From the NCBI GenBank assembly GCA_041665365.1, contig JBAYIY010000007.1:11103-75102 (forward strand): 64,000 nt of DNA. The letters run 5' to 3'. Of the stretch, positions 4,603 to 46,025 are shown one piece after another. Each line of letters begins with the position of its first letter. Position 1 is the first letter of the stretch. The notes below the pieces were generated by a model. The model saw nothing but the letters and a program-made list of their open reading frames with translations, did not search any database and was not told the origin of the DNA. This stretch comes from Patescibacteria group bacterium. GTDB taxonomy: Bacteria > Patescibacteriota > Patescibacteriia > UBA9570. The position numbers and the translations under genes are program-made.

Positions 4603-4713
4603 AAAATCACGCAGCAAGAATTTTCTGTAATTCCGTATCGAGCCGATCCAAACAGAGAATTAAATACGTATTAATTACCTAGCTACTATTCGAGATGTAC
4701 TGCTATGCAGGGG
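4603..4713. repeat. copy 2 of the direct repeat, abutting the 3' end of tRNA-Trp
   Basis: Aligned by eye to 3148-3266. Its last bases (tgcaggg) overlap the tRNA acceptor 3' strand. Confidence 0.85.
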
Positions 4714-4778
4714 GTGCAGGAATCGAACCCGCCCTAATGGTTTTGGAGACCACTGTACTACCGATATACGAACCCCCT
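4708..4778 (-). tRNA. trnW: tRNA-Trp (anticodon CCA)
   Basis: The reverse complement folds as a cloverleaf. Acceptor AGGGGGT/ACCCCCT, anticodon stem GTGGT/ACCAT, loop CTCCAAA, T-arm GCGGG-TTCGATT-CCTGC. CCA is not encoded. Confidence 0.85.
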
Positions 4779-4849: not shown

Positions 4850-7105
4850 TTATTCGACGCGCACGGTTACGACGCGGGATAGACCGGCAGCATATTCTTC
4901 GGCTTTTTGGGCAGATGGTGTCCAGCGTACTTTGAATTTGGTTAAAGCGGTGACTGGTTTGTGCCAGCTAACGCGACCAGTGATGGAGGTTCTGGCAGAA
5001 TCAATTAATTTCCAATGGTTGGATGATAGTTTACGATATAATCTGACGCTTTGATGTTTTAACACGCGCCCTGTGGAAGCATCGGATAGTTTAGTGCGTA
5101 ATGTGACACGACTGTCGGTTGGTACGGTCAGGGTGGGCTTTCTGTGTTGATTAGCGCGTAAGGTCATTGCAGGTTTGGATTGCAACAGATAAATACCGCG
5201 ATCATTACCGGCGGTTAAACCATCGAACAATAAAGAGTAATATTGCTCACCGGTTAAACCGGTATAGTATAAGCCCCAGGTAGCACCGGCATCGGTGGAT
5301 TTATAGATTACAGCTTTACTGTTGGAGTCAGAGCCAGCTAAATATAGAGTAGAAGTATTTTGTAGAGTCAAAGCATAGAAGTTACTCAAGTCGAGTGCAG
5401 CGGTCAGTTCTGTCCAAGTGGTGCCACCGTCAGTGGTTTTATAGGCACCAACACTGCCACCACCTAAGGCATACATGATTTGATCGTTAGTTGGGTCAAG
5501 TAATAATTTGCGTATTTCTTCGCTCGGTGCACCGGATAATTGTGTCCAAGTAGCGGCACTGTATTTATAAATACCAACGCCACCGATGGCCGTACCACCA
5601 CTAGCACCAATTCCGGCAAATAAATCACCACTCTGATTCATTATTAAAGTTTGGACAGACAAATCATCTGGCACAACCAGGTCAGTCCAGGTTTCACCTT
5701 GATCGGTGGATTTTAGAACTAAACCGTGTTTATCTCGGTTCGGATTATTATTGGCGACAGCGGCGTAGAGAATAGTGTTATCATTTGGGTCAGCGATAAT
5801 ATCAGATACTTGCTCATCACAAGACACGGTGCCAAATAAAATGTTATCAGACCAGGTTGTACCACCGTCGGTAGTTTTATAGAGGAAACAAATACCACCA
5901 GCTAACACCGTATTCGGGGTTGCCGGATCCAACCAGACAGAGACACCGGCTTCACCGAGCATGGGGAATTGCCAGGTTGGAGCTGAGTCCGTAAAGTTTT
6001 CAGTTTTAGCATAACCATTATATGAGGCTGTCCAGACAATATCTTTATCCGTCGCTTGGACAATATCTGTCACCATTACACCAGTAATACCTAGATTTTT
6101 TGCTGTCCACGTGACACCACGATCAGTACTCTTTAATATACCAACTTGTCCGTCACCATATAAGACATCAATATCAAAGATATCAATCATTAGGTTGTGT
6201 TCCGGTAAACGGAGATGTTCCGTCGGAAAGGCTGTCCAAGTAACACCGGTATCATCGGAGTAATATGAACCAAGATAAGCTCGACCGGTGGTATCGAAGG
6301 TGGTGTTGATGGCATAAATATCGGCAATTTCAGACCAAGTGGCGCCACCATCAAAACTTTGACGTGCTAAATAATCAAAACCGCCGGCTAAAACTAAATG
6401 TAGTGGATTAGTTGGATTCACAGCTAATTCTTCAGACGATGAGGTGTCGGAAATATCGGCAAAAGTATACAACAAACTCCAGGTTGCACCATTGTCGGTT
6501 GAGCGATAGACGATTGGATTAGTTTCATCTGTGTTATTACCCACCACATAAAGAGCCGCATCGGCTGATGAATAAGCCATGTTCCAAGCGGCGAAGTTAT
6601 CGGCGATGTTTACAACATCAAAACTAACACCATTGTCAGTACTGATATTTAAGGTCGCCCCCTCAGTGATTTCGAACAGGCGGTCGTTGGCATATAACAA
6701 TACTCCGGCTGAAGTGTCGGAAATTTTTTGCAAGGTAACACCTTGATCGATGCTGCGATACAGCGCATTCGCGAAAGCCACAAACACAATACCGGTCGCA
6801 GGATCAACTTCAACACTCAAACTAGTACTATAATCTGATCCGGCCGGTACGCCCACCCAATTATCACCGTCATCAGTCGAATAAAAAAAACCATTTGGGG
6901 TATTATTAGCCACCGCGTAGAGAGTATCCGTAATTGGATCTTGCGCCATGTCCCAAACGCTGCCGCCATATAAACCTAAATTAGTGGCGATACTTTGTTG
7001 CTGTTGATCGTCAACAATTAAATCTTCAGCTTGGGCAGTTTTGAGCATACCACTGCCCAACACTACACTAAGCAAACTTACTAAAAATAATATTCGTCTT
7101 TTCAT
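4850..7105 (-). CDS. secreted BNR/Asp-box repeat beta-propeller protein
   Basis: 751 aa with a signal peptide. About 11 Asp-box motifs S/TxDxGxTW, e.g. STDNGATW, SFDGGATW, STDRGVTW, TTDGGTTW, STDQGETW, STDAGATW. Confidence 0.8.
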   Translation of the reverse strand: MKRRILFLVSLLSVVLGSGMLKTAQAEDLIVDDQQQQSIATNLGLYGGSVWDMAQDPITDTLYAVANNTPNGFFYSTDDGDNWVGVPAGSDYSTSLSVEVDPATGIVFVAFANALYRSIDQGVTLQKISDTSAGVLLYANDRLFEITEGATLNISTDNGVSFDVVNIADNFAAWNMAYSSADAALYVVGNNTDETNPIVYRSTDNGATWSLLYTFADISDTSSSEELAVNPTNPLHLVLAGGFDYLARQSFDGGATWSEIADIYAINTTFDTTGRAYLGSYYSDDTGVTWTAFPTEHLRLPEHNLMIDIFDIDVLYGDGQVGILKSTDRGVTWTAKNLGITGVMVTDIVQATDKDIVWTASYNGYAKTENFTDSAPTWQFPMLGEAGVSVWLDPATPNTVLAGGICFLYKTTDGGTTWSDNILFGTVSCDEQVSDIIADPNDNTILYAAVANNNPNRDKHGLVLKSTDQGETWTDLVVPDDLSVQTLIMNQSGDLFAGIGASGGTAIGGVGIYKYSAATWTQLSGAPSEEIRKLLLDPTNDQIMYALGGGSVGAYKTTDGGTTWTELTAALDLSNFYALTLQNTSTLYLAGSDSNSKAVIYKSTDAGATWGLYYTGLTGEQYYSLLFDGLTAGNDRGIYLLQSKPAMTLRANQHRKPTLTVPTDSRVTLRTKLSDASTGRVLKHQSVRLYRKLSSNHWKLIDSARTSITGRVSWHKPVTALTKFKVRWTPSAQKAEEYAAGLSRVVTVRVE

Positions 7106-7952: not shown

Positions 7953-9764
7953 TTACTCAATCCCTAACTCTTTGCGGCGTTGGGCACTTTTATCTAAAGT
8001 CATTTTGCGCATGCGAATATTTTTTGGGGTTACTTCCACCAGTTCATCATCACCAATATATTCGAGTGAAGCATCTAAATCCATGATACGAGGGGCTTTG
8101 AAATGTTCATCAGTCCCATCACCTTTAGACCGCATGTTGGATAGCTGTTTGGCTTTGCAGATATTTACACTTAAATCAGCGGATCGGGCGTGTTGACCAA
8201 CCACTTGGCCTTTATAGACCTCAATGCCGGGACCAATAAACATAACACCACGATCTTGCACATTGCGTAAACCATACAAATTACTCTGGCCGGTTTCGTG
8301 TGCTACCAGTGAACCTTGATCGCGTTCTTTCCAGGCACCCGGGTCAGGCATGTATTTATAAAACATCGTATTCATAATACCCAAACCGCGCGTATCGGTT
8401 AAAAACTCATTGCGGTAGCCGAACAAACCGCGAGTGGGAATAATAAATTCTATGTAAACAATACCGTTATCAGACGTCATGTTTTGCATCTCACCATGGC
8501 GGCTGCCTAATTTTTGAATGACCGCACCCGAGTAGGCTTCAGGCACTTCGATAAAGATTTGATCATACGGCACCATTTTTTTACCGTCTATTTCTTTCAC
8601 AATTACTTGAGGGCGAGACACTTGTAATTCATAACCCTCGCGGCGTAAACGTTCGATCAAGATAGCTAAATGCAATTCACCACGACCACATACAACCCAA
8701 TTACTTTGCGGTCCATCGGTCACACGTAAGGCAGTATCAGTTTCCAATTCTTTAAAAAGCCTTTCCCGAATTTGGCGCGAGGTAGTAAAGTCACCTTCTT
8801 TACCAGCGAAAGGGGAATCATTCACCGAAAAAGTCATCTTCACAGTTGGCTCTTCGATTGTTAAGAGGGGAAGAGCAATCGGATTTTCCGGATCAGCAAT
8901 TGTTTCACCGATATTGGCTTCAGGTACACCGGCCAGAGCTACAATATCACCCGCGGTGGCTGTTTCAACTTCCGTGCGTCCTAAACCGGAGAAGGCCATA
9001 ATAGAAGTGAGCTTCAAAGTTTTTTGCACTCCTTTACGGTCGATATGAACCACATTTTGGCCGGCGGTTAATTTACCATTATAGATGCGACCAGTGGCGA
9101 TTCTACCTTTAAAACTATCGGCGGTTAAGGTAGTGACTAACAATTGTAATGGTTTAGCTGGATCACCAGTTGGTTCAGGAATATATTTTATAATCGCATC
9201 AAATATTGGGGTGATATCGGTCATGTCTTCCAACTTTGGTTCTAAACCCGCTTTGCCCATTTTAGCGGCCGCATACAAAATCGGGAAATCAGCCGTGGCA
9301 TCATCGGCGCCTAATTCTATAAACAAATCAAAGGTGCGGTTGAGTACTTCATTTATACGCGCATCTGGCTTATCAATTTTATTGATCACCACAATCACTT
9401 TTAGCTTCATTTCTAAGGCTTTACGCAACACAAACCGAGTTTGCGGCATGGGGCCTTCTTTAGCATCGATCAACAACAAACAGCCATTGGCCATTTGTAA
9501 GACGCGTTCGACTTCACCACCAAAATCTGAGTGGCCGGGGGTATCAATAATGTTGATTTTAGTATCATTATACTGAACCGAAGCGTTTTTGGAGAAAATC
9601 GTAATACCTCGTTCCTTTTCGAGATCATTACTATCCATGATTAACTCGGCGCCGGTTTGTTCCTTATTTAGGAAAGTTTTAGATTGGCGCAATAAAGCAT
9701 CGACCAAAGTAGTTTTACCATGGTCAACGTGAGCAATAATAGCAACGTTTCGTAGATTTGACAT
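7953..9764 (-). CDS. typA: translational GTPase TypA/BipA
   Basis: 603 aa. AHVDHGKTT, DTPGH, NKID G-motifs, and full-length similarity to BipA by recollection. Confidence 0.95.
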   Translation of the reverse strand: MSNLRNVAIIAHVDHGKTTLVDALLRQSKTFLNKEQTGAELIMDSNDLEKERGITIFSKNASVQYNDTKINIIDTPGHSDFGGEVERVLQMANGCLLLIDAKEGPMPQTRFVLRKALEMKLKVIVVINKIDKPDARINEVLNRTFDLFIELGADDATADFPILYAAAKMGKAGLEPKLEDMTDITPIFDAIIKYIPEPTGDPAKPLQLLVTTLTADSFKGRIATGRIYNGKLTAGQNVVHIDRKGVQKTLKLTSIMAFSGLGRTEVETATAGDIVALAGVPEANIGETIADPENPIALPLLTIEEPTVKMTFSVNDSPFAGKEGDFTTSRQIRERLFKELETDTALRVTDGPQSNWVVCGRGELHLAILIERLRREGYELQVSRPQVIVKEIDGKKMVPYDQIFIEVPEAYSGAVIQKLGSRHGEMQNMTSDNGIVYIEFIIPTRGLFGYRNEFLTDTRGLGIMNTMFYKYMPDPGAWKERDQGSLVAHETGQSNLYGLRNVQDRGVMFIGPGIEVYKGQVVGQHARSADLSVNICKAKQLSNMRSKGDGTDEHFKAPRIMDLDASLEYIGDDELVEVTPKNIRMRKMTLDKSAQRRKELGIE

Positions 9765-9823: not shown

Positions 9824-12800
9824 TTATTGTTGTCCCATCAATGCACCCATATCTACTCCAGAGATTCTGACTAGTAATGGTAGTAGTTTTTGCAACTCAG
9901 GTATGCGATAAATGTCTTCAGGTTTTTCGGTAACTAAGGCCGCCATTACTTGTCTTTGTAAACGTTGTTGTAAGGCTTCAAAATTACCACCACTTGAGGC
10001 TAGGGCTTTGATTAAATAGTGAAAGTTTTTATCTGGTGTGCTATGTGGTACGCGCATAATACTGCCCACGAGATCTTTAAATAAATCAGCCGTCGTGGCA
10101 TTATCTCGTAATGCCTTATCAATTACTTCTTGCCAAGTTGCAATAGAACTTCTTTGGCCGGTATATTCATGTACAATTCTTGCCACAGGTTCAGTTTCAC
10201 TGCGCAGGCCTTGTTTAATTAAAATTAATTGTACTGTGAATTCAAGAAAATCTTGCTTCATTTTAGTTGTTTCGCACCGTCCGACACTGCCAGCGTCAAT
10301 TAAACCATAACGTTCATGACCCGGACGCAGATCAACAATACTATTGCCGGCATGAGGGTCGGCATGAAAAATTCCATCATCAGCCACTTGATACAACCAA
10401 TCAATGGCGGCACCGGCTTGAGCCGCTTCAACATCAAAAGTCATATATGGTTCAAGTTCTTTATCAGTTGTACCGGCTGTTTGCAGGCGAATAATCTCAG
10501 CCATAGATAAACCTTCATAAAATTCCTCAACAATCAACTGAATGCGTTGAGCCTCACCCTCACCGCGTTCACGTAAATACAATACCTGCGGCACGGACAC
10601 TGGTAAAGCTAACTTACCGACCTGAATTGTGGCACCACGTTTACGTATTTGCTGACCCAAATCACGGGCGGCGGATGCTTCTTTACCGAAATCAAGCTCA
10701 TCGGTCACTAGTTGGCGTATTTCCGGTACAAACCAATCTGGAATGTTATAACCTTCATGCTGTAAGGCAATAACAACACCATCCAGTACAGTCATATCTT
10801 CCGTAAAATTGCGCGCTGTGTTTGGTCGTTCCACTTTAAAAGCCACCGGTTCACCTTTAGCTGTGGTAGCCTTATGCACTTGTTTAATTGAAGCACTGCC
10901 TCTGCATTCACCAATTTCAGTTAGTTGCACACCGTCAGGACGCGCTTGAAATAACTGAGCGGTTCGAGCATAAGCAAAGACACCTCTTTTATTAAACGGT
11001 GCGCATTTATCTCGTAAGTTTCCTAAATCGGTGCGGATGGTTTCATCGCTAATCAAATCAGGCCGTTCTGATAACACCTGACCAACTTTTACACCCACCA
11101 CGCCTAAACCCTGCAGCACCATACGCAAAGCTTCACCGGGGCGTAACTTTGTTTCACGAATTTTTACTTCGCGTAATTCTTCCAAAAGGTTAACCAAGAA
11201 TTCTACGCGGCGCGCTGGTGAATAACCGGACATGACTTCCTGAAAAATAATTTTACCAATGGTTTGCAGTGGGGGATTATCGGCTAAAGCTTCCATGAAG
11301 ACTAATTCAAAAGTATCTTGAGAAAATTTTTGTAGAGCTTCTTTATCTGGTGTGTGGTTATGACCAACATAAATTGAAAAGGGAGCCACTTCACAGATGC
11401 CACCTTCACCCAATAACGCTGAATAAAAAATGGTACGGCGTTCTTCGGAACTTAACGCCCAAAAGGCGGTGACTTTATCTTGCTCATTAATGTTAAAAGT
11501 TTTACTGGCTAAATAGCGATCATCTGGTAGATCACCACCTAACAACCATAATAAAACCTCAGCCCGTTTGCTTCGATCACTGAACATGGCTAAATAATGT
11601 TTCATTGTTTCGGTAGCGGCAAAAGTCGGTGGTTCACCCGGTGGAAAATCTCCTGGATGATTAGCTTGATAGCGATAGGTTAAACGTTCTAACTCACTAC
11701 ATTGCACTTCGGTGGTGGCTAAGTCTGTCATGAGCGCAAACAAGATTGAATCACGATGATGAGTAGCCTTAGGGAAGCGTATTAATACGTGATCCAATAC
11801 AGCATGAAAGGCTTTATCATTCGCGGCCGCCACCATGGCAGGTAACGGTTCAGCTACATTGCCAAGTGTGGCGACACTGGCTTGGTGGTAATCAACGCGT
11901 AAATGATCAATTTCTAAATCAACGGCTTGACGTTCATACATTTCGCGCAAACCTCCCGTCAGAGACACCGCTGTATCCGTTAAGAAATCCGCGATGATTT
12001 TTTTTTGCGGCACGGAAATAAGATCACCCAAGCGTACTAAACCACTCACTTGAACGCTGGGGTATTTATCCATGTACGCATCTTCAACTATATTGGCACC
12101 AGCTACAACAAAATGATCACGCAAACTAATTGTGCGAGACGCTAAACGAATATTCGCTTTGGCCAGTTGATCCGGCGAACAAAACTTATTAACCACTTGC
12201 CACAATTCATGTTGGGCCAACACATGTAAAAAATAATCGCGAAACATACTTGGTTCGGGCATTAATTCCAGCACGTGAGCTCGAGCAGCCTTAAGTGTGT
12301 CTGGTGCTGACTCCACTCGTTCTAGTTCTGGCAGTAATACTCGTGCTGCATATTTAGCTTTATACATCGGGTCAAGCATAGTTTCGCCCTTATCAGTGCG
12401 TTCAACCGTATCGGAAAACAACAGTAACTCCGCACTGGTTGGGTAAGCCTCCGCGGCAACTTTTTGTTCTTGTTTAAGTTCCCTATGACGCTGTGTCCAA
12501 ACTTTATCACTTACGCTACGGTATTCATATGGATGAGAAGAAGTGTCCCAAGTATGTTTACGTACATTTTCAGCTTCATCCTCCGTTATTTTACCACGAT
12601 CTAATAACCATTTCAGTTTCCAGGCAATACCCGCTGCTGTACCTTCGAAATAGTTGGTTTTAACATACCCATTCACCACATCAGCTGAGCGGTTTACTTC
12701 GGCACCATCACCCAGCTCGGCTTTCATTAAAGCCATGAGTTGTTCAAGTTCAGCTGGTGTGCTGCCGAGACGATCAGCTCTTAACGCCAAACAAAAGTTA

Positions 12801-14179
12801 CGGTAAAAACCTGGCTTGAGTTGTTGCATTTTTTCTAAAGCATCTGGTTCTTGAACAACGGCTTCTAGAATGTGCTTCAGTCTTAATACACGGTTTTTCC
12901 AAAACCACTCTTTGGCCTGTTCTACGACATGTTCAAATGCGGGAGGCGGTGGAAGGTTATTTGGAATATCTTCAATACCATGTTTGTTGATATGTATGTT
13001 TTTAGCAATGGCGCGAGAAGTGATATATCCTTTTGGTGCATCTCGTATTATATCTACCGGATTATCTGGAATATATGGAAAAGCTTCTTTTACACTGACC
13101 GCTAAATCTGCTACGGCCGCTACATCAAAATCACCGCTGGCAACATAGAGCCTAATTAGCGTATCATCATTTATTCCAGCCTCAGCATATTGGGCTTTTA
13201 ATCGATCAGGCGTGAAACATAGTTTATGTAATAATAAAGGCCAAGATAAACGTTTATCTTGATTTTGAGCATCATCAGTAGTGACTAAACTAGTCGGTAA
13301 CAGGTGCAAAATATCTTCCTGGCAAACTCTAGCGTGTTCACTTAACAATGGATTAGCGATTAACCATTGTAGTTCGGCATAATGTTTTGTAAGAACCCGT
13401 AAGTGTTCTGGTGCTTCGGTTTGCCACCGTTTACCCCGTACACCAATAGCTGCTTCCATTAATGGCATCAGCGCAATTAACTCTTCACGACAAGTGTCAG
13501 GATTTTTTGTGTACTCATTGATCAAACCAAGTACATATGGTAAGGCTCCATCTGCTAACTGTAACGCGGCCGTTTCTTGACGAGTTGGTTTCATAGCAAA
13601 CTCGTTATTACGTTCCATTTGCTGAAAACGTTCAACTATAGTAGTGGTGTGTGGTGAACGTTCTTTTTGCAAGGTGCGGACAGTTTCTTTAATATTATGT
13701 TTAGAGAAATATGCCCTAAATAAGGTAATCGTATAACCAAGCTCGGGCGGTGTAGCGGCAATAAAACGTAACATTGGTAGCTCGGGATGCTCTGTGGCGT
13801 GAGTTTGACACCAGTTCTGTAAATGAAGATAGCCATTACCCATTTCTATAAAATCATTACTTTGTAATTGGGTAGTTAACTTTTGATAATTAGCTGGTGG
13901 CCAAACGTGTATTAAATCACGTATGGCATATTCAACTAAACGTTGCCACTGGGCTAATTCAATATCTCTGTTAGCATATCTTCTAGATTCATAAAAACCG
14001 TTCAGGCGACTATCAAAATTATAATCAGTGTATTCACGTTCATCGCTGGTCGTTAAATAGGCTGTTGTGTTATCTCCATAATAACGAGAAGGTATGGGTA
14101 GATCTTGTCCGAATACAACTCGAGCCGAGTGTAATCTATCATGATCGGTTGTATTAATACTATTACCTAGCTTCGTCAT
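9824..14179 (-). CDS. giant protein with C-terminal ABC1/UbiB-type atypical kinase domain
   Basis: 1451 aa. The last ~450 aa carry VKVGQVLSERPDL, ASIKQVHKA, VAFKVERPN, ELDFGKEA and FHADPHAGN..V.....GLIDAG. The N-terminal ~1000 aa are unrecognised. Confidence 0.8.
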   Translation of the reverse strand: MTKLGNSINTTDHDRLHSARVVFGQDLPIPSRYYGDNTTAYLTTSDEREYTDYNFDSRLNGFYESRRYANRDIELAQWQRLVEYAIRDLIHVWPPANYQKLTTQLQSNDFIEMGNGYLHLQNWCQTHATEHPELPMLRFIAATPPELGYTITLFRAYFSKHNIKETVRTLQKERSPHTTTIVERFQQMERNNEFAMKPTRQETAALQLADGALPYVLGLINEYTKNPDTCREELIALMPLMEAAIGVRGKRWQTEAPEHLRVLTKHYAELQWLIANPLLSEHARVCQEDILHLLPTSLVTTDDAQNQDKRLSWPLLLHKLCFTPDRLKAQYAEAGINDDTLIRLYVASGDFDVAAVADLAVSVKEAFPYIPDNPVDIIRDAPKGYITSRAIAKNIHINKHGIEDIPNNLPPPPAFEHVVEQAKEWFWKNRVLRLKHILEAVVQEPDALEKMQQLKPGFYRNFCLALRADRLGSTPAELEQLMALMKAELGDGAEVNRSADVVNGYVKTNYFEGTAAGIAWKLKWLLDRGKITEDEAENVRKHTWDTSSHPYEYRSVSDKVWTQRHRELKQEQKVAAEAYPTSAELLLFSDTVERTDKGETMLDPMYKAKYAARVLLPELERVESAPDTLKAARAHVLELMPEPSMFRDYFLHVLAQHELWQVVNKFCSPDQLAKANIRLASRTISLRDHFVVAGANIVEDAYMDKYPSVQVSGLVRLGDLISVPQKKIIADFLTDTAVSLTGGLREMYERQAVDLEIDHLRVDYHQASVATLGNVAEPLPAMVAAANDKAFHAVLDHVLIRFPKATHHRDSILFALMTDLATTEVQCSELERLTYRYQANHPGDFPPGEPPTFAATETMKHYLAMFSDRSKRAEVLLWLLGGDLPDDRYLASKTFNINEQDKVTAFWALSSEERRTIFYSALLGEGGICEVAPFSIYVGHNHTPDKEALQKFSQDTFELVFMEALADNPPLQTIGKIIFQEVMSGYSPARRVEFLVNLLEELREVKIRETKLRPGEALRMVLQGLGVVGVKVGQVLSERPDLISDETIRTDLGNLRDKCAPFNKRGVFAYARTAQLFQARPDGVQLTEIGECRGSASIKQVHKATTAKGEPVAFKVERPNTARNFTEDMTVLDGVVIALQHEGYNIPDWFVPEIRQLVTDELDFGKEASAARDLGQQIRKRGATIQVGKLALPVSVPQVLYLRERGEGEAQRIQLIVEEFYEGLSMAEIIRLQTAGTTDKELEPYMTFDVEAAQAGAAIDWLYQVADDGIFHADPHAGNSIVDLRPGHERYGLIDAGSVGRCETTKMKQDFLEFTVQLILIKQGLRSETEPVARIVHEYTGQRSSIATWQEVIDKALRDNATTADLFKDLVGSIMRVPHSTPDKNFHYLIKALASSGGNFEALQQRLQRQVMAALVTEKPEDIYRIPELQKLLPLLVRISGVDMGALMGQQ

Positions 14180-16292
14180 AGAAATTTATTTCGATGGGTC
14201 GACCACTGGCATCAGTAAACAAATCTCTCAATTCAGTTGCATCTTCGGCCACACCGGCGGCATACAATTCAGTCGCCAGACGATTCAATGGTCTTTGTAA
14301 TTCAGTCTCGTCAATGGTTGTTAAGTTTGATGGTTTTTTAAAAAAACGCGACATCAACCCAGCCAACCCGGTTGGCTTGTCCAACTCAACCAGAAAGTAA
14401 TTTTCGGGCAAACCAAGTTGCTCAGCCTTGTCTCTTAAAATGTTTACTATTTCTTGCAACCAGGCCGGCCGATTTGGTTCACTAAGGTTAATGCGTAAAC
14501 CTTCTTCCAACCACCGTTTAAACAAAACCCGTTTGATGTCTTTTTGATGAAAAAACGGTGGTTTATATACTGTTCCGGCCACAGTAGCCATGTGGGTTGA
14601 AGGTTTTTCTGGAATACCCCGAGCTAATTGCTGAATATAGGGGTGGTTCTGTAAAGTTTGTACAGTGCGCATGGCTGCCCCAATTTTACCGTGGTCTTGC
14701 GCGTGAATATTCAAACCTAGCGCACCGGTCATTACTTCAAGTAATGGTTTATGTAAATTATTAAAACGATCTACATAATCAAGGCGATCCCCTCGTGTAA
14801 AAGGTAGGTCACTTTGGGCATGTGTATAATCATACACCGGTAAAGTACGCATGACTGTTGGTACAACTTTCCACTGCTGCAAATCTTTTAAATCATCGAA
14901 TAGAATAACATCATGGGCAAATTTTGGATAAATAGTATCATGGGTGGCGCGGCGAAATAGCTCATCTTTAACGGTTTGTGTAACTGTAGTAACTCGTTCA
15001 CCTGTGACGTGTTCAATATGGTCTGGTGTAATAACCGCATCAAAATGATGTCGTAATAATTTTTGTAAACGTTGGTAAATTTTACCAAATCTGGTTTTGG
15101 ATAATCTTGTACCAGAACCAATCATGGCAGCATGTTGAAAAGGCTGAAAAGTTGATTCAAAAGAACGCGTCGGTGGTAATTGATACCCAGTGTTTATTGT
15201 AGCTGGTAGAGCTACTTGTTTTTCAGAGCGTGATAATCGCGCTTGTACAGTAGTGGCGAGTTCGGCTAACGATGATGGTATAGTTGGTAAGGCACTAGTC
15301 GTGATTGAATCAGTGGAAGTTTTGGGTGGTAACTCCTCGAGTAATTTTAAAGCGGCGTTTTTAAGGTCGATAGATTCTTGTCCGGTAAGTGTGTAGTGAA
15401 ATTCAAAACCGCGTAACCAGCGCTGGGCTAAATTAGCTATAAATGTGTCTTTATGTTGTTTAATCTTCGCTTTTTTATCAAAATGTGATTCTATTTTCCA
15501 GTATTTTAATGCGGCTGGATTAGTGTGATCAAATAGATCTTCCAATTTTGTAAATGGCTCAGTGGGTGGGAGTTCTGGAGGTACTAAAACAGCATGTTGA
15601 CGATGGAATTTAATCGCATCTGTCATTATAGTGCGATTAATACTGTCGGGATCATGCAATGTAGTATCTTCTGAAGTTGGGTTTTGGACTAAATCTTCTA
15701 AAACTTTACCGCGATAATCATTATCTGGTGAACGAGGTTGGGAAAACATTCTTGACTCAATGGCTAGTGGATTAATCAATGAACAATATAGACTTTCGCC
15801 CGATAAGGCTAAATTCGCTTCGTAAAGAATAGCGTTGTGATAACCGAATCGGTCATGTTCTAGTGCATCATACACGGCTGCCAGAGCAGTGCGCATATCA
15901 AGCTGTAATCGAAATACTTCTAAAGCCATTAAACCATCTCGAAAAGTGGCGCGAGGATTATTTTCTATATCATCGAGTATATTATTCCAATCTTCAGCAG
16001 TGCGAGCTACTTGTAATTGTTGTAACAGTTTTTCTCGAGCTAAATCTTTGGCGTCTTCTAGTGCCGCATCACTAAACAGTTGCTGCGGTTGATCGGCATT
16101 ATACACAATGCGTTCTGGGCGATGATACTCTTCTTCCAGTGCGGTTAAACGGTTCTGTGTGATGGGGTGAGTTTTTGTAAAATAATGTTCAATCACTTGT
16201 TTCCAGTTTGGGCGACCAGTGGCTTGCAGTAAGACACGTTGTAACTCAATGGCGGCTTGTGGATTATAGCCGGCTAAATCGGCGCCTTCCAT
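14163..16292 (-). CDS. large uncharacterised protein; N-terminus is the distal half of an M48-like peptidase domain
   Basis: 709-aa ORF. It begins MEGADLAGYNPQAAIELQRVL, which resembles the ExxAD...AGYDP third-ligand region of M48. It lies in frame with 16404..17069 across a single TAA. Confidence 0.6.
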   Translation of the reverse strand: MEGADLAGYNPQAAIELQRVLLQATGRPNWKQVIEHYFTKTHPITQNRLTALEEEYHRPERIVYNADQPQQLFSDAALEDAKDLAREKLLQQLQVARTAEDWNNILDDIENNPRATFRDGLMALEVFRLQLDMRTALAAVYDALEHDRFGYHNAILYEANLALSGESLYCSLINPLAIESRMFSQPRSPDNDYRGKVLEDLVQNPTSEDTTLHDPDSINRTIMTDAIKFHRQHAVLVPPELPPTEPFTKLEDLFDHTNPAALKYWKIESHFDKKAKIKQHKDTFIANLAQRWLRGFEFHYTLTGQESIDLKNAALKLLEELPPKTSTDSITTSALPTIPSSLAELATTVQARLSRSEKQVALPATINTGYQLPPTRSFESTFQPFQHAAMIGSGTRLSKTRFGKIYQRLQKLLRHHFDAVITPDHIEHVTGERVTTVTQTVKDELFRRATHDTIYPKFAHDVILFDDLKDLQQWKVVPTVMRTLPVYDYTHAQSDLPFTRGDRLDYVDRFNNLHKPLLEVMTGALGLNIHAQDHGKIGAAMRTVQTLQNHPYIQQLARGIPEKPSTHMATVAGTVYKPPFFHQKDIKRVLFKRWLEEGLRINLSEPNRPAWLQEIVNILRDKAEQLGLPENYFLVELDKPTGLAGLMSRFFKKPSNLTTIDETELQRPLNRLATELYAAGVAEDATELRDLFTDASGRPIEINFYDEAR

Positions 16293-16403
16293 GCCGGCTA
16301 AATCGGCATCATATTCAAAACGGACACTTTCATCAGTTGGTCTATCTGGTTTATCAGGTTGATATTTTTTTTGTTGGAGATGACGTAACTCATGTCCAAT
16401 AAT

Positions 16404-17069
16404 TTAAGCCAAATGATCTTTGGTAAAGACCTTTTTTTGTTCGACAAACATTTTATGCAACTGTGTAATGAACCCAATATTAACAAACACGTGCACTGGT
16501 TCGGTTGAAGGAACGGTGTAATCTTCATCTAATTTTTCAGTACGTAAAACATAAGCATTCATGTCTGTACTACGCGTTAACTCCAATAAAACTGGGCGCC
16601 GAAAACCCATCGCCTCAGACACATTGGCGACAATCTCACCAACTTCTTGATATATGACAGATTCACGTTGTTCAGCTTCTGTTAAAGTTTCAGTGGTCGT
16701 ACGTTTATATTCAAGTTGTAATCGTGTCCGCAAACGGCGGGTGGCTTCTTGTACAGGACGACGGCGTTCTAAAAACTCCTGGCGTTCCGGAACGGATTCA
16801 TCGCCATAATTAAGACGTTCACGATCAATCTCATAACGTAAGGCTCTAATCCACTCCACTGAGTGCGTGGGGTCTTTAAATTCTATTGTAGTTGAATCAC
16901 TTGTAGATTGTGTAAGTTGTTCCAGTGCGACACCGGCTAATTCACTAGTACGGGTATCAGACATCATCAGTCTGGTTAATATCAACAACGTGCGATCATC
17001 ACGCGAGAGCTCTAAAGTTAGTTCAGTACTCTCGCGTTGCTCGCCTCGTTTAGGTTTTATTTCAGGCAT
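16404..17069 (-). CDS. N-terminal fragment of the interrupted M48-like giant gene
   Basis: 221 aa ending ...TKDHLA-TAA. The next in-frame codons read IIGHELRH (HExxH). Confidence 0.55.
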   Translation of the reverse strand: MPEIKPKRGEQRESTELTLELSRDDRTLLILTRLMMSDTRTSELAGVALEQLTQSTSDSTTIEFKDPTHSVEWIRALRYEIDRERLNYGDESVPERQEFLERRRPVQEATRRLRTRLQLEYKRTTTETLTEAEQRESVIYQEVGEIVANVSEAMGFRRPVLLELTRSTDMNAYVLRTEKLDEDYTVPSTEPVHVFVNIGFITQLHKMFVEQKKVFTKDHLA

Positions 17070-17075
17070 GTGATG

Positions 17076-17609
17076 TTATACCAGATGCAACTTGTGTTCG
17101 ATTACCGTCACACGTTGATTGAGCTCGGTCACCTCAAACCGGTAAGCCACGTTGTCTTGGCGTAATTTAAGTTCATCCTGACCTTGTTCAAGATTAGATA
17201 ATCTATAATCAACTCGATCGAAGCGTTCATCGACCGAATCAAAACCCAGTTTAGTGGCCATGGCTAAATCATCTACCGTAGTAGTTAAATTATCCATTCT
17301 TGTGGATAAGCTATCTACTTTACCATCAACATGATCCACTTTAGTAGATAAACTATCAACCTTTGTATCTAAAATATCTGTTTTCGTCGATAAACCATCA
17401 ACTTTGGTATCTAAACTATCCATCCGTGTGGATAGAGTGTCAACTTTAGTGGTTAATTTATCCGTTCTCGTGGATAAACTATCTACAGTTTTAGTTAATC
17501 CATCCGTTTTTGTGGATGAAATACCAACTATATTAACTAAACTACTGACGATTGCTGTCAAACCGTCCATTTTGTCTGCTAGATTGTCTAGCGTGATTGT
17601 TTTCTTCAT
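17076..17609 (-). CDS. heptad-repeat coiled-coil protein
   Basis: ORF track gives 17076..17651; the Met at 17609 (MKKTITLDNL) is more plausible. At least 11 consecutive heptads of the form [VTM]D.L.TK. Confidence 0.6.
   Translation of the reverse strand: MKKTITLDNLADKMDGLTAIVSSLVNIVGISSTKTDGLTKTVDSLSTRTDKLTTKVDTLSTRMDSLDTKVDGLSTKTDILDTKVDSLSTKVDHVDGKVDSLSTRMDNLTTTVDDLAMATKLGFDSVDERFDRVDYRLSNLEQGQDELKLRQDNVAYRFEVTELNQRVTVIEHKLHLV
17265..17513. repeat. 21-bp (heptad-encoding) tandem periodicity inside the coiled-coil gene
   Basis: Repeating gtggataaactatc/tttagt... units are visible on the + strand. Confidence 0.7.
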
Positions 17610-17655
17610 AAAGTGTTTCCCAATACTTTGGCGGCGCTTTTGTAAACACACTAGC

Positions 17656-18477
17656 CTATTTTTTTGGCTTCGTCAACAGTGCATAACTCATTGGATCAAA
17701 CAATATTTCATCAGGTTTAATGCGTTCCTGCAGTAATAATTGCGCTTCCGGATGTCGCTTCTGAAAATCCAGAATGACACCTTCATTCTCGGCTTCATTC
17801 AAGGCACAAGTGGCATAAACTAATCTACCACCGGGTTTTAAAGCTAGCCACAAACCGTTGATTAGCGCGATTTGTTGTTGCTTTAATCTTTTTATACGCG
17901 ATGGTGTCCAAGCGGCTAAATATTTCTCACTGTGCCAGACATGTTTTTCTGAACTACACGGTGCATCCAATAAAATACCAACAAAAAAATCCGGATATTT
18001 TTTAAATAAAATTTCTGATTTTCCCAACTTTATATGAATATTGTTATAACCTGAATTTTGAAAAGTATCTCGTAAACGGTTTATTCTTTTATTGGAATTA
18101 TCATAACAATATAATTTACCGGTATTATTTAATTGGTGAGCCAGCAACGTGGCTTTACCGCCCGGTGCGGCACAAGCATCTAAAATAATTTCACTTGATT
18201 GAACGTTCAAAGCCAACACTGGTTTGAGTGAAGATGCATTCATGATATAGAACCAATTCAGTTCATAACCTGGTAAGGGTATACCAATATCTATACCATC
18301 CGGCCACAACCAAGCCGATTTATACCAATCTAATGGTTTAATACTCAAACCAGCTTTTTCCCATAAGTTAGTTAATTCTGTCAGGTATTTTGGATGAGGC
18401 AGAATGATCGGTTTTGGAGAAAAATTTAACAACTCAATCTGTTTCCCGTAATATTCAATAAATTGTGCTTTAGACAT
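17656..18477 (-). CDS. NOL1/NOP2/Sun-family RNA m5C methyltransferase (RsmB/RsmF-like)
   Basis: DACAAPGGKAT (SAM site), LLDAPCSSEK and YATCAL catalytic Cys motifs. Start moved to the Met at 18477 (MSKAQF). Confidence 0.8.
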   Translation of the reverse strand: MSKAQFIEYYGKQIELLNFSPKPIILPHPKYLTELTNLWEKAGLSIKPLDWYKSAWLWPDGIDIGIPLPGYELNWFYIMNASSLKPVLALNVQSSEIILDACAAPGGKATLLAHQLNNTGKLYCYDNSNKRINRLRDTFQNSGYNNIHIKLGKSEILFKKYPDFFVGILLDAPCSSEKHVWHSEKYLAAWTPSRIKRLKQQQIALINGLWLALKPGGRLVYATCALNEAENEGVILDFQKRHPEAQLLLQERIKPDEILFDPMSYALLTKPKK

Positions 18478-18501
18478 ATTTAGGTATACTATTACCACGA
18501 T

Positions 18502-18912
18502 ATGAAAAAAATTGCGATTCTCACAACTGAGATTAATCCAGAAACAATCACTGCCATGGTAGAGGCCGCTACCATTGAGGCGACTCGGCACGAGGCCACA
18601 ATTGTGACTATAACCAAAACATTGGGGTGTTTGGATATGCCGGTGATAGCAAAACGCTTATTACAACGCAAAGAGGTTGACGGGGTAGTGATATTAGGAG
18701 CCGTAGCACAAGGTGAAACAAAACACGATGAGTTGGTGGTGAACACGATGACGCAGGCCATTGTGCATTTATCTTTGCAGTATCAAAAACCAGTCGGGTT
18801 TGGCGTGATTGGACCCGGTGCGACACGCGAGCAATTCAACCACCGCGAGAGCGAATATGCGACCCGCGCGGTTCAAGCGGTGATGATAAACATCAAATTG
18901 TTACACGAATAA
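18502..18912 (+). CDS. ribH: 6,7-dimethyl-8-ribityllumazine synthase-like protein
   Basis: 136 aa. DGVVILGAVAQGETKHDELV and KPVGFGVIGPG resemble the DMRL synthase motifs (ALG.VIRG.T.H; PV.FGVLT). Confidence 0.6.
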   Translation: MKKIAILTTEINPETITAMVEAATIEATRHEATIVTITKTLGCLDMPVIAKRLLQRKEVDGVVILGAVAQGETKHDELVVNTMTQAIVHLSLQYQKPVGFGVIGPGATREQFNHRESEYATRAVQAVMINIKLLHE

Positions 18913-18947
18913 TTGAAGTGGACGAATATTATTCGTCCACTTCAATT
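18911..18947. terminator. bidirectional hairpin terminator between ribH-like and rpmB
   Basis: Perfect 37-nt palindrome: aattgaagtggacgaata-t-tattcgtccacttcaatt. Confidence 0.6.
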
Positions 18948-18962
18948 ATTTCACACAGGCGG

Positions 18963-19205
18963 TTACTGTTTTGATTTCGCCAACATTTTGCGCAGATCGT
19001 ATTTACGACCGGCTTTGTCCCACTTGGCCAAGGTGCGTAAACCGGAGGCTGTAATAGTGACAGTGATATGTTTACCTGTCGCCGGATTGAGCAAACGACG
19101 CTTTTGCAAATTGGCATAAACGCGGCGTTTGGTGCGGCGTTTAGAGTGGCTGACATTATAGCCAACCGATGAACTGCGTTTTGTTACTATACATTTCTTT
19201 GACAT
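18963..19205 (-). CDS. rpmB: 50S ribosomal protein L28
   Basis: 80 aa. MSKKCIVTKRSSSVGYNVSHSKRRTKRRVYANLQKRR fits the L28 consensus. Confidence 0.9.
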   Translation of the reverse strand: MSKKCIVTKRSSSVGYNVSHSKRRTKRRVYANLQKRRLLNPATGKHITVTITASGLRTLAKWDKAGRKYDLRKMLAKSKQ

Positions 19206-19213
19206 ACCGGAAA

Positions 19214-19242
19214 ACTATACAGTATTATGTAAAACAAGACAA
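19214..19242 (-). promoter_or_regulatory. sigma70-like promoter of rpmB, leaderless layout
   Basis: Minus strand: TTGTCT, 17 nt spacer, TATAGT, then 8 nt to the ATG at 19205. Confidence 0.5.
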
Positions 19243-19269
19243 GTCTAAATCAAATAACCAAAAAACTCT

Positions 19270-20028
19270 ATGGATTCTGGCCTAAATAATGCATTAATAC
19301 GTTTCACCTATATAACTGCGGCTATTATGTTGTTGGTGGGTGTTTATGTTGGCACCAAAACATATATTGAATTTAATCCACAACCAAAAGACCAGCCAAG
19401 CCTCATGGTTAGTGGCACCGGTAAAGCCGTTGGTATACCCGATATTGCCACGATGAGTTTTTCGGTCGTTGAACAAGGCGATACCGTAGCCGCCGTCACA
19501 GCTGCGACTAATACGAGCATGAACAATATTGTCGCCACCATGAAAGGAGCCGGGATAAAAGATGCTGACATAAAAACTACTTCATATAATTTAAACCCAC
19601 GCTATGATTACACTAGAAAAAGTAGTGGCGAAATTATCGGTTATGAACTCACTCAGGGTGTGACAGTAAAAGTACGCAATTTGGATGGCGTTGGAGAAAT
19701 AGTTGATGCTGCTACTCAAGCTGGTGCGAATAATGTGTCTTCGCCGGTTTTTGCCATTGATGATCCTGAAACAGTCAAAACTGAAGCGCGCGCTGAGGCC
19801 TTCGCTAAAGCCAAAACCCGAGCGGAAGATTTAGCCAAAGCCGCTGGTGTCACTTTGGGTGATATTGTGACTTTTTCTGAAAATGACGGTGAAGTGGCGC
19901 CACAACCTTATTATAATGCATATTTATCAGCCGATAGCATGGCAGAAAAATCAGTCGGTGCCGCCATTGCGCCTGGTAGTCAGGAAGTTAATGTGACGGT
20001 TAATGTTACGTACGCGATTCATAATTAA
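19270..20028 (+). CDS. SIMPL/DUF541 family periplasmic-type protein
   Basis: 252 aa with an N-terminal TM anchor. The pattern GTGKAVGIPDIA..SFSV...G and the overall layout are typical of DUF541. Confidence 0.75.
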   Translation: MDSGLNNALIRFTYITAAIMLLVGVYVGTKTYIEFNPQPKDQPSLMVSGTGKAVGIPDIATMSFSVVEQGDTVAAVTAATNTSMNNIVATMKGAGIKDADIKTTSYNLNPRYDYTRKSSGEIIGYELTQGVTVKVRNLDGVGEIVDAATQAGANNVSSPVFAIDDPETVKTEARAEAFAKAKTRAEDLAKAAGVTLGDIVTFSENDGEVAPQPYYNAYLSADSMAEKSVGAAIAPGSQEVNVTVNVTYAIHN

Positions 20029-20033
20029 TTTTT

Positions 20034-20825
20034 ATGCCTGATTTGATTATACAAAATCTACACGCCAGTGTTGATAATAAACCCGTTTTGCAAGGGGTGA
20101 ATTTGACTGTACGGCAAGGGGAGATTCATGCTTTGATGGGTCCGAATGGGTCAGGCAAAACCACTCTTTCACAAGTGATTATGGGTCATCCAAAATATCA
20201 GGTAACAGCTGGCAGTATTGAGTTTAACGGACAGGATATTTTAAAACTAACTCCGGATAAGCGAGCATTATTGGGAATGTTTTTAGCATTTCAATATCCC
20301 AAAGAAATACCCGGTATAAAATTATTCACATTTTTGCGCACGATTTATAACACTAAAACCAAACAGCGTTTAACGATTAAACAATTCCAACAAGTCTTAG
20401 ATGAAAAATTAAATTTGGTGCGGTTAGAAAAAAGTTTTTTGGAACGTTATCTAAACGCTGGTTTTTCTGGTGGCGAAAAGAAAAAAGTTGAGATGCTGCA
20501 GTTAGCTTTACTGCAACCCGATTTAGCCGTGTTAGATGAAACTGATTCCGGTTTAGATATTGATGCTTTACGGACAGTTTGTTCCAGTTTAAAAACAATC
20601 AAAGCCACCCATAATTTAGGTGTGTTATTAATCACTCATTATAACCGCATCTTAGATTATATTGTACCGGATTATGTGCATGTGATGATCGACGGGAAAA
20701 TTGTTCAATCCGGCGATAAAAATTTTGCCAAAGAAGTTGAGGAAAAAGGTTACGATTGGTTGAGAGACCTCACCCCCAACCCCTCTCCTTCTGAAGGAGA
20801 GGGGAGTAAGGGGAGAGGTCAATAA
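20034..20825 (+). CDS. sufC: Fe-S cluster assembly ATPase SufC, with a repeat-derived C-terminal tail
   Basis: Walker A GPNGSGKTT and signature FSGGEKKK. The canonical end ...GYDWL is followed by 18 aa encoded by palindromic element 20765-20820. Confidence 0.9.
   Translation: MPDLIIQNLHASVDNKPVLQGVNLTVRQGEIHALMGPNGSGKTTLSQVIMGHPKYQVTAGSIEFNGQDILKLTPDKRALLGMFLAFQYPKEIPGIKLFTFLRTIYNTKTKQRLTIKQFQQVLDEKLNLVRLEKSFLERYLNAGFSGGEKKKVEMLQLALLQPDLAVLDETDSGLDIDALRTVCSSLKTIKATHNLGVLLITHYNRILDYIVPDYVHVMIDGKIVQSGDKNFAKEVEEKGYDWLRDLTPNPSPSEGEGSKGRGQ
20765..20820. repeat. family-1 palindromic element (short form) inside the sufC 3' end
   Basis: Arms gacctcaccccc ... ggggagaggtc enclose the hairpin cccctctccttctgaaggagagggg. 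Confidence 0.75.
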
Positions 20826-20827
20826 TT

Positions 20828-22264
20828 ATGTCTACTATTCCTCAAACTACCAGGCAGACAACAGACAAAATATTTGCTGGGCTAAATCGTGATACTTTCG
20901 ATCATAAAAATCAATCAAGTTACACCAAACACGCCAGTCGTGGTGTATCGGAAGAACTTGTGCGAAAGATTTCCACACTTAAACATGAGCCAGCTTGGAT
21001 GTTACAAAAACGGCTGGACGGTTTGAAATTATTTTTTGAGAAACCGTTACCAAAATTTGGTCCAGATTTATCGGCTTTGAATTTTGACGAAATTATTTTT
21101 TATGCTTCACCAGATGAAAAAATACCCAGTAAATCTTGGGAGACAGTTTCACCGGATATAAAGAAAACCTTTGAGCGGTTAGGTATTCCTGAGGCTGAAA
21201 AAAAGCTGCTGGCCGGAGTCGGTGCACAATATGAATCGGCGACAGTGTATCATCGTTTAAAAGAGCGTTGGGAAAAACTAGGTGTGATTTTTGAAGATAT
21301 GGATGTAGCTGTCCAAAAATATCCTGACCTGGTGCAAAAATATTTCATGACACGGTGTGTTCCGATTCAAGATCACAAGTTTTCAGCCCTGCATGCCGCC
21401 GTCTGGAGTGGGGGAACATTTTTGTATGTGCCTAAAGGAGTAAAAGTAGATGCACCAATGCAAGCTTATTTTCGGATGAATGCTCAAAACATGGGTCAGT
21501 TTGAGCATACTTTGATAATTATCGAAGCAGAAGCAGAAGCCCATTATATCGAGGGTTGTTCCGCACCGAAATATAATTCAAATTCTTTACATGTGGGCTG
21601 TGTGGAAATATTTGTTGGCAAAAATGCACATTTTCGTTATTCGAGTGTCGAAAACTGGAGCCGCGATACATATAATTTGAATACGAAACGGGCTTTGGTG
21701 GGCGAAGCGGGGAGAATGGAATGGGTGGGTGGTAACATGGGCAGTTGTGTAACGATGTTGTATCCGTGCAGTATTTTGCAAGGGGAACGGGCGCATGCCG
21801 AACATTTAGGTATCGCGTTTGCTGGAGCCGGTCAGATTCAAGATACCGGGGCTAAAGTGATTCACAGTGCGCCTAATACTACGTCTAGTGTAATTATGAA
21901 AAGTCTGAGTAAGGATGGTGGGAAATCAGTCTATCGAGGTTTGCTCACTATTAGTCCTCGAGCCACCGGGTCTGTCTCAAAAATTAAATGTGATGCTTTG
22001 ATTCTAGATGATCATTCTATCTCAGAAACCATTCCGGATATGAACGTGCATACCAGTGATGCTACCATTGGTCATGAGGCCACCGTTGGGCAAATTGGTG
22101 TCGAAGAAGTGTTTTATTTAATGTCGCGCGGTTTATCTGAACAAGAAGCACATGGTATGGTGGTGAATGGTTTCATTGAACCAATCGTAAAAGCCTTGCC
22201 GTTAGAGTATGCCGTGGAAATGAATCGTTTAATTGAATTAGAAATGGAAGGGTCAGTGGGATAA
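20828..22264 (+). CDS. sufB: Fe-S cluster assembly scaffold SufB
   Basis: 478 aa. Full-length SufB-like sequence by recollection, located between sufC and sufD. Confidence 0.9.
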   Translation: MSTIPQTTRQTTDKIFAGLNRDTFDHKNQSSYTKHASRGVSEELVRKISTLKHEPAWMLQKRLDGLKLFFEKPLPKFGPDLSALNFDEIIFYASPDEKIPSKSWETVSPDIKKTFERLGIPEAEKKLLAGVGAQYESATVYHRLKERWEKLGVIFEDMDVAVQKYPDLVQKYFMTRCVPIQDHKFSALHAAVWSGGTFLYVPKGVKVDAPMQAYFRMNAQNMGQFEHTLIIIEAEAEAHYIEGCSAPKYNSNSLHVGCVEIFVGKNAHFRYSSVENWSRDTYNLNTKRALVGEAGRMEWVGGNMGSCVTMLYPCSILQGERAHAEHLGIAFAGAGQIQDTGAKVIHSAPNTTSSVIMKSLSKDGGKSVYRGLLTISPRATGSVSKIKCDALILDDHSISETIPDMNVHTSDATIGHEATVGQIGVEEVFYLMSRGLSEQEAHGMVVNGFIEPIVKALPLEYAVEMNRLIELEMEGSVG

Positions 22265-42236: not shown

Positions 42237-42429
42237 TCTGAGTAGGAAAGTAGGTTAGGGTGAGGGGGTATAGGTTGTGTCGCAAGTCTGCGAACAATCT
42301 GTACCTCCTCCCCACCTACACAAATATGAATAAGGGATAATGTCTCTCGAGGTAGTGACCTCGGTAAACATGGTTCCTGATTCAACTGAATAAGGAATCG
42401 GTCTTTAAAAATAATCTATGGTTAAAACC

Positions 42430-45987: not shown

Positions 45988-46025
45988 ATCCAGTAGAGAC
46001 ATGCCATGGCATGTCTCTACTGGAT
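45988..46025. repeat. perfect 38-bp palindrome (family 2 variant)
   Basis: atccagtagagacatgcca|tggcatgtctctactggat. Confidence 0.9.

Follow-up and report, generated by a model that had tools for sequence, protein, structure and literature searches.

A split M48 metallopeptidase-UbiB gene pair in a Patescibacteria genome, with single-chain relatives elsewhere

The UbiB/ABC1/ADCK family is ancient, and COQ8A and COQ8B tie it to human disease. What its members do biochemically is debated, with ATPase, lipid extraction and protein kinase as the candidates. UbiB proteins are ATPases that bind prenyl-phenol lipids and respond both to these and to detergents; their KxGQ domain shuts protein substrates out of the active site (bioRxiv 10.1101/149823; PMC8956952). 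ABC1K proteins, which belong to this family, co-reside with an M48 protease (PGM48/sll1280) on plastoglobule and cyanoglobule lipid droplets (PMC12223511, PMC8956952). Here, we describe a locus that couples the two families genetically. It lies in a 64,000-nt stretch of DNA (the window) from a Patescibacteria group bacterium (assembly GCA_041665365.1, contig JBAYIY010000007.1, positions 11,103-75,102), which is part of an 85.6-kb metagenomic contig. On the minus strand, an M48-like reading frame with an in-frame stop codon is followed by an overlapping gene for a 1451-aa protein with a C-terminal UbiB-like domain.

Judged from sequence comparison, the M48-like and UbiB-like genes are the halves of a Rosetta-stone fusion, which is a single chain of ~2,400 residues in relatives. 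Our favoured reading, to which we give a probability of about 0.55, is that the pair is the split form of a rare family of giant soluble M48-scaffold-UbiB proteins and would act as a two-subunit complex with a UbiB-controlled protease.

The gene pair and its single-chain relatives

The non-kinase part of the 1451-aa protein (N-terminal 1,000 residues) served as the profile in an exhaustive search of 1.84 billion representative proteins (E <=0.001). This gave 30 matches, in size classes of ~1,400-1,540 aa and 1,917-2,450 aa. In about half of the relatives, a single chain of 1,917-3,362 aa carries N-terminal M48, colinear helical regions and C-terminal UbiB; the 3,362-aa outlier (P0045) came from a follow-up search. 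One candidate, P0038 (1,940 aa), was discarded as a bacterial cadherin and Big_9 repeat protein that reached E=2e-5 through seven weak repeat matches.

Six members of the long class (four tested and two others) carry Pfam M48 at residues ~170-380 and ABC1 at ~1,980-2,300 of one chain, and M48 scores in the fused relatives are 29-59 bits. All 14 long proteins have HExxH near the N-terminus (residue ~150-315) and DxHxGN near the C-terminus, and 13 show the strict KxGQ pattern next to the kinase domain. The fused chains are colinear with both window proteins: positions ~100-420 of the M48-partner profile align to fused residues ~115-545, and positions ~430-1010 of the N-terminal profile to fused residues ~1,265-1,940. 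Across these 14 proteins, which share 20-37% identity, NA, HExxH, ExxAD and HP of the protease are invariant, as are ASIK, Lys, Glu, HxDxHxGN and DxG of the UbiB domain; in KxGQ, K and Q are invariant and G nearly so. No member of the M48-UbiB family has a transmembrane-like segment by Kyte-Doolittle hydropathy. Both active sites are under selection across the family, and the proteins are soluble by prediction.

For the 1451-aa protein, five full-length orthologs (37-64% identity) came from a word-indexed search, and a scan of GTDB species representatives added locus L011. The split arrangement at these loci is as follows.

L003: M48-like gene of 992 aa, 14-nt overlap with the UbiB-like gene
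L004: M48-like gene of 989 aa, 17-nt overlap with the UbiB-like gene
L005 (Candidatus Kerfeldbacteria): M48-like gene of 978 aa, 17-nt overlap with the UbiB-like gene
L006: M48-like gene cut by the contig end, 14-nt overlap with the UbiB-like gene
L007: M48-like gene of 953 aa, 23-nt gap to the UbiB-like gene
L011 (Candidatus Uhrbacteria, 64% GC): intact M48-like open reading frame (ORF) of 963 aa, then a UbiB-like ORF of 1414 aa

The gene linkage noticed in an earlier, sequence-only reading of the window is therefore conserved elsewhere, with the M48-like gene directly upstream of the UbiB-like gene in five intact loci and in L006, where the contig end cuts it. Every locus examined has an M48 partner, either upstream or fused. 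Flanking genes differ among loci, with only a downstream BipA recurring (in the window and L003), so the M48/UbiB pairing cannot be put down to conserved synteny alone. Across six loci, pairwise identities for both proteins run in parallel (58/65, 46/53, 48/52, 33/39 and 29/35%), as expected of co-inherited partners. These comparisons show that the pair is co-inherited, as one evolutionary unit and almost certainly one functional unit.

The features of the locus in the window are listed here in plain terms.

17656-18591, minus strand: RsmB/F-type methyltransferase gene, first in minus-strand order
17076-17651, minus strand: coiled-coil gene, 191 aa from a GTG start or 177 aa from an ATG at 17609
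14163-17069, minus strand: M48-like reading frame, 969 codons, the first subunit of the pair, interrupted; orthologous to intact genes of 953-992 aa
16404-17069, minus strand: N-terminal fragment ORF of the M48-like frame, 221 aa plus stop, without HExxH
16404-16406, minus strand: in-frame TAA (codon 222) of the M48-like frame, two codons before HExxH
16110-16577, minus strand: M48 metallopeptidase core (PF01435), residues ~165-320, with NAY, HELRH (16380-16394), RFEYDAD and THP..NR
14163-16292, minus strand: C-terminal fragment ORF of the M48-like frame, 709 aa from Met260, mostly helical, without HExxH and without a known family
14163-14179, minus strand: 17-nt overlap of the end of the M48-like frame with the start of the UbiB-like gene
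9824-14179, minus strand: UbiB-like gene, 1451 aa, the second subunit of the conserved pair
11267-14179, minus strand: N-terminal region of the UbiB-like protein, ~970 residues, predicted mostly alpha-helical and solenoid-like, no known family
11180-11842, minus strand: family-specific module before the UbiB domain, residues 780-1000, with motifs FPKATHHRDSILFALMTDLATTE, NEQDKV.AFWALSSEERR and ARRVEF
9827-11266, minus strand: UbiB/ABC1 atypical kinase-like (ATPase) domain, residues ~972-1451 of the 1451-aa protein (Pfam ABC1, TIGR01982)
7953-9764, minus strand: BipA gene, last in minus-strand order, downstream of the UbiB-like gene

The layout given by the sequence-only reading was recovered exactly: four minus-strand ORFs at 17076-17651, 16404-17069, 14163-16292 and 9824-14179, with 6 nt (17070-17075) separating the coiled-coil gene from the next ORF, and the 17-nt overlap at 14163-14179. 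This overlap is consistent with translational coupling of the M48-like frame and the UbiB-like gene; because stop and start overlap, coupled translation would be possible. A promoter and terminator scan gave counts not above those of shuffled sequence.

The C-terminal domain of the 1451-aa protein had been read as ABC1/UbiB, and Pfam ABC1 (PF03109) indeed matches residues 1094-1319 (E=7.7e-26, 91.2 bits against a cut-off of 22.9). The Lys and Asp residues of the kinase are intact, along with KxGQ. Six orthologs share invariant K1031-x-G-Q1034 (K-V-G-Q in the window), G1094SASIKQVH1102, K1115, E1161, D1274-P-H-A-G-N1279 and D1295-A-G. The nearest PDB sequences to the domain are 5yjz, an M. tuberculosis UbiB-like ATPase (8.4e-5), and COQ8A (3e-3). 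Residues 972-1306 align to positions 5-310 of TIGR01982 (UbiB), at 130 bits against an equivalog cut-off of 487.55, and PRK04750 scores 105 bits against 667.

The protein is much longer than a canonical UbiB, as had been stated: 1451 aa compared to NCBIfam UbiB profiles of 436 and 529 positions. The products of the locus had also been described as lacking transmembrane segments, and no 19-residue window in them reaches a Kyte-Doolittle mean of 1.6. The highest mean in the UbiB-like protein (1.33) falls at the KxGQ helix and not at the C-terminus. C-terminal transmembrane domains are predicted for E. coli UbiB (10.1101/149823); the Kyte-Doolittle scan found no such helices in the 1451-aa protein. 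The 1451-aa protein is not a canonical quinone UbiB. NCBI labels the identical protein 'AarF/UbiB family protein [Patescibacteria group bacterium]', which is misleading, and its M48 neighbour is one disrupted gene rather than two hypothetical proteins.

The remaining sequence of the pair resists assignment. Pfam searches with 350-400-aa tiles found nothing in the ~970 residues before the UbiB domain nor in the ~800 around the M48 core, NCBIfam and PADLOC gave nothing beyond UbiB, and a PDB profile search with the N-terminal region of the UbiB-like protein had no match. The ~1,000 N-terminal residues that the sequence-only reading called novel thus stay unmatched in Pfam, NCBIfam, PADLOC and PDB sequences; remote-homology and fold searches assigned the N-terminal regions to no well-known family and returned only generic alpha-solenoids. 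An AlphaFold2 model of UbiB-like residues 1-1000 is nearly all helix, with a predicted local distance difference test score (pLDDT) of 66. The model of the M48-like ortholog P0008 (pLDDT 48) is too poor for use, and its Foldseek matches are meaningless. An internal duplication linking the two helical regions was ruled out (hhalign probability 0.14%).

Outside both catalytic domains, residues 780-1000 of the UbiB-like protein are the region most consistently recovered in split and fused relatives, and the sub-profile built on them, used in hmmsearch, picks up every member of the family, split or fused. In the alignment of the module (A7), D810, W878, P885, E913, R914, G927 and R990 are invariant.

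The interrupted M48-like frame

The upstream product had been described as an M48-like giant protein. The M48 core holds up: on the segment after the stop, PF01435 (Peptidase_M48) reaches 24.2 bits (cut-off 20.3), and on the L007 ortholog 44.5 bits. What does not hold is a single open gene, as codon 222 is an in-frame TAA. This codon splits the 969-codon frame, so gene callers give pieces of 221 and 709 aa. The frame is 46-58% identical to its intact orthologs (P0008-P0011). Its zinc-site residues, H226ELRH230 and E252-Y-D-A-D256, are invariant in the orthologs and the fused relatives, and the ortholog profile (A4) matches the M48 peptidase PDB 3c37 (E=0.012) and no other PDB family.

The stop falls two codons ahead of GHELRH, in the context ...KDHLA*IIGHELRHLQQ.... 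Orthologs have Ser, Ala or Gly at this position (codons AGC, GCC, GCT and GGG), and every observed ortholog codon is at least two nucleotide changes from TAA. The 36 codons after the stop, which include HExxH, hold no ATG, GTG or TTG before Met260; the HExxH segment therefore could not be translated in the normal way. TAA terminates 22 of the 46 long ORFs of the window, including BipA and the UbiB-like gene. As the commonest ordinary stop of the window, it is not reassigned. Reassignment of stop codons was ruled out generally, since TAA, TGA and TAG all terminate long conserved ORFs here.

Because this ordinary stop precedes HExxH, M48 protease activity has most likely been lost in this genome. 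The loss probably stems from a recent nonsense mutation, as the rest of the M48-like frame shows no decay: only five unique changes occur at the 124 columns that are invariant in five orthologs (4.0%), compared to 9.2% in the sister locus L003, and all M48 motifs after the stop are intact. The UbiB-like subunit is likewise still intact beside the interrupted frame.

A population variant or an artefact is a possible source of the TAA. More broadly, the stop could be harmless, whether as an assembly or consensus artefact, a minority allele, a site of read-through or a break between separately made fragments. We think this improbable but worth keeping in mind. The low rate of unique changes at otherwise invariant columns, below that of L003, would fit it, as would the intact motifs after the stop and the preserved 17-nt overlap with the downstream gene. 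Against it, the TAA is present in both the ENA and the Logan assembly, which show 100% identity over 8.8 kb, and the 709-aa gene call also appears in the JGI and GEM sources, although all of these may derive from the same underlying reads. The codon is also the commonest genuine stop of the window, with no ATG, GTG or TTG between it and Met260, and it lies two or more changes away from all observed ortholog codons.

Genomic context and neighbouring genes

Fused genes have housekeeping or envelope genes as their neighbours. In L008, the gene is beside arginyl- and valyl-tRNA synthetases, a bactofilin and a diacylglycerol-kinase-like gene, the last of which adjoins it. In L009, it lies among citryl-CoA or succinyl-CoA synthetase-like genes, Gmk, L19 and UvrA. 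In L014 (7112-15353), a fused 2,450-aa gene starts 1 nt past BacA (undecaprenyl-diphosphatase), in a cluster with a penicillin-binding protein (PBP) transpeptidase and glycosyltransferases. The BacA adjacency, seen in this one locus, may point to polyprenyl-lipid or envelope biology. P0045 (L015:4485-14573), which is the most divergent member and has M48 at residue ~1,155 and ABC1 at ~2,726, lies in a mobile or defence-like setting that the other loci do not share. It is flanked by phage-like genes (Phage_CP76, Lin1244_N) on one side and by a Schlafen/AlbA_2 ATPase, RmuC, an AAA_13/SMC-like gene and a serine recombinase on the other. Scans of viral contigs and JGI metagenomes with profile A5 gave no confirmed relatives.

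Two further genes were noted beside family members. In L004, a gene for a 389-aa leucine-rich repeat plus Ser/Thr protein kinase (11846-13015) starts at the last base of the UbiB-like gene and has no counterpart in the window. In L009, a 1,462-aa ORF without a Pfam match (17357-21745) lies directly downstream of the fused gene, and a short citrate-synthase-like gene also flanks the region.

The sequence-only reading counted the coiled-coil gene as a member of the same operon. It adjoins the pair here but recurs beside the pair in no related locus, and its absence upstream of the pair in L003, L004 and L005 rules it out of the M48/UbiB module. In this genome, it is probably co-transcribed with the pair. 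Its product consists of ~13 near-perfect heptads, L[ST]TK[VT]Dx, with DNA periodicity of 21 and 42 nt, and has a mildly hydrophobic N-terminal segment (Kyte-Doolittle 1.35). It is a generic heptad coiled coil, for which Pfam, PADLOC and NCBIfam give only nonspecific coiled-coil matches.

Elsewhere in the window, three regions (40800-42400, 43000-44000 and 46000-47200) have 60-71% GC in a 40% GC genome. They coincide with ORFs at 40572-42236 (plus strand), 42982-43839 (plus strand) and 46104-47159 (minus strand) for secreted or lipoprotein-like proteins, which have DTDTD acidic repeats and a Cys-rich motif, 'DGDGY..CND....PGA.E.CNG.DDDC'. Immediately ahead of their likely starts, the two plus-strand ORFs have a near-identical stretch in common. 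These ORFs may be of foreign origin or may reflect a mis-joined assembly. A 751-aa BNR/Asp-box, sortilin-Vps10-like repeat protein is encoded at 4850-7105 (minus strand), and its gene adjoins the window's only tRNA, a tRNA-Trp (CCA) at 4707-4778 (minus strand).

Possible function and comparison with known systems

In the favoured reading, the domain order would be an M48 zinc metallopeptidase, ~1,600 residues of alpha-helical scaffold and a UbiB/ABC1-type domain. The two products of the split form would come together in a complex that corresponds to the fused protein. The UbiB-like domain would bind and hydrolyse ATP and thereby control the activity of the M48 protease or its access to substrate; a hydrophobic or polyprenyl ligand might gate the domain, as in other UbiB proteins. 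The helical regions may serve as a substrate-binding scaffold.

Several points count against this proposal. The nonsense codon bars ordinary translation of the protease in this genome, and with no protease the UbiB-like subunit must work alone or be heading for loss. The structure models are weak (pLDDT 66 and 48), and fold searches with the helical regions return only generic alpha-solenoids. The mobile or defence-like island around P0045 hints at a different biology.

A different job for the same parts would be lipid handling, with the UbiB-like domain extracting or sensing undecaprenyl phosphate or another polyprenyl or scavenged membrane lipid, and M48 acting in a Ste24-like manner on lipid-modified or membrane-proximal proteins. 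The role would then be envelope or lipid homeostasis of a lipid-auxotrophic episymbiont, not regulated bulk proteolysis. Polyprenyl-phenols co-purify with UbiB-family proteins, whose activity rises with phenols and with membrane-mimicking detergent (10.1101/149823), and ABC1Ks and an M48 protease are found together on prenyl-lipid droplets. In two loci, the fused gene has a neighbour of this kind, BacA 1 nt before it (L014) or the adjoining diacylglycerol-kinase-like gene (L008). The window itself encodes BacA, so polyprenyl carriers exist here without quinones. However, the family has no transmembrane segment or obvious membrane anchor, the BacA adjacency occurs in one locus, with the window's BacA ~12 kb from the nearest end of the pair, and neither Pfam tiles nor fold searches recognise a lipid-binding domain in the helical regions. 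We regard this role as rather unlikely. Slightly less likely again is a part in conflict or anti-phage defence, in which, by loose analogy to STAND/Avs systems, a helical sensor and a UbiB-like nucleotide switch would act with a protease effector. The architecture of effector protease, long helical repeat region and NTP-binding (nucleoside triphosphate-binding) domain would suit such a system, as would the very rare and patchy distribution (30 representatives in 1.84 billion) and the gene content of the P0045 island given above. Accessory systems also often carry nonsense-inactivated genes. Yet no PADLOC-DB 2.0 model matches the UbiB-like protein, the M48 orthologs or the distant orthologs, and viral contigs yield no relative. 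Nine other loci are in housekeeping contexts (BipA, elongation factor P, ribosomal proteins, tRNA synthetases, FtsEX, BacA/PBP), the BipA synteny is common to two loci, and the two proteins diverge in parallel, which speaks for vertical inheritance.

The canonical UbiB role, as an accessory factor or regulator of isoprenoid-quinone biosynthesis with an unusual extension, is very improbable. It has in its favour that UbiB/ABC1 gives the best NCBIfam and Pfam matches and that all UbiB motifs are intact. The scores nevertheless fall far below the cut-offs for both quinone-linked models (130 bits against 487.55 for TIGR01982, 105 against 667 for PRK04750), and C-terminal transmembrane helices are missing. 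As the sequence-only reading had it, no quinone-pathway Pfam family occurs among the called genes of the contig stretches that cover the window. The host is a Patescibacteria metagenome-assembled genome, and Patescibacteria generally lack respiratory quinones. Pairing or fusion with an M48 protease is obligatory in the family. We infer that the module is not a ubiquinone-biosynthesis factor.

If the UbiB domain acts directly on the protease, driving or gating it through its ATPase activity or ligand sensing, a UbiB protein would for the first time have a defined enzymatic partner. The co-residence of ABC1K and PGM48 on plastoglobules would then reflect an ancient direct partnership, and the pair would give practical access to what the UbiB family does biochemically. 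The Rosetta-stone fusion names the M48 protease as a direct UbiB partner and provides a quinone-free system for UbiB study. A UbiB domain fused to M48 in organisms without quinones argues that its core activity is not tied to quinones, and the presence of ~2,400 conserved but unassigned codons in genomes of very small size implies an important function. Both domain families are known; the M48-UbiB architecture, split or fused, and its quinone-free setting appear undescribed. Full-text searches returned joint mentions of M48 and UbiB for plastoglobules only, and no paper that brings together UbiB and Patescibacteria, or ABC1 atypical kinases and the Candidate Phyla Radiation. It is a more doubtful, tentative step to see here a new class of giant soluble enzymes, in which UbiB is fused or operon-coupled to M48 through ~1,600 scaffold residues in quinone-free bacteria.

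The protease part resembles soluble or periplasmic M48 peptidases (PF01435; PDB 3c37, from Geobacter) in its NAx, HExxH, ExxAD and HP..R motifs. It differs in having no signal peptide or transmembrane segment, a short spacing of ~22 residues from HExxH to Glu, a 160-aa N-terminal extension, ~650 further residues, the UbiB coupling and the stop codon. In BepA/YfgC, M48 is followed by a tetratricopeptide repeat domain, and the helical repeat region after the protease is a point of likeness. FtsH and Lon may be compared by analogy, as an ATP-using domain and a metalloprotease in one polypeptide or complex; here, the nucleotide module has a protein kinase-like fold rather than AAA+, and neither ring assembly nor unfolding is implied.

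The sequence-only reading called the coupling of M48 and UbiB unexplained. That the coupling is meaningful is supported by the linkage and the fusions, but it is not wholly unexplained, as ABC1K/PGM48 (Synechocystis sll1280) is a partial precedent. There, too, a UbiB-family protein and an M48 metalloprotease share a compartment or assembly, and no other setting is known to associate the two families functionally. Those proteins are encoded by separate, unlinked genes and are bound to prenyl-lipid droplets in photosynthetic hosts. Here, the two are an overlapping pair or one 2,400-aa chain with ~1,600 extra helical residues, in non-photosynthetic, quinone-less bacteria. The likeness to UbiB/ABC1/ADCK (COQ8) proteins covers the C-terminal ~480 residues, with KxGQ, the Ala/Ser-rich loop, Lys, Glu, DxHxGN and DxG. 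The window protein is three times longer, with ~970 extra residues in front and no transmembrane helices; it has DAG in place of DFG, and it is always paired with or fused to M48.

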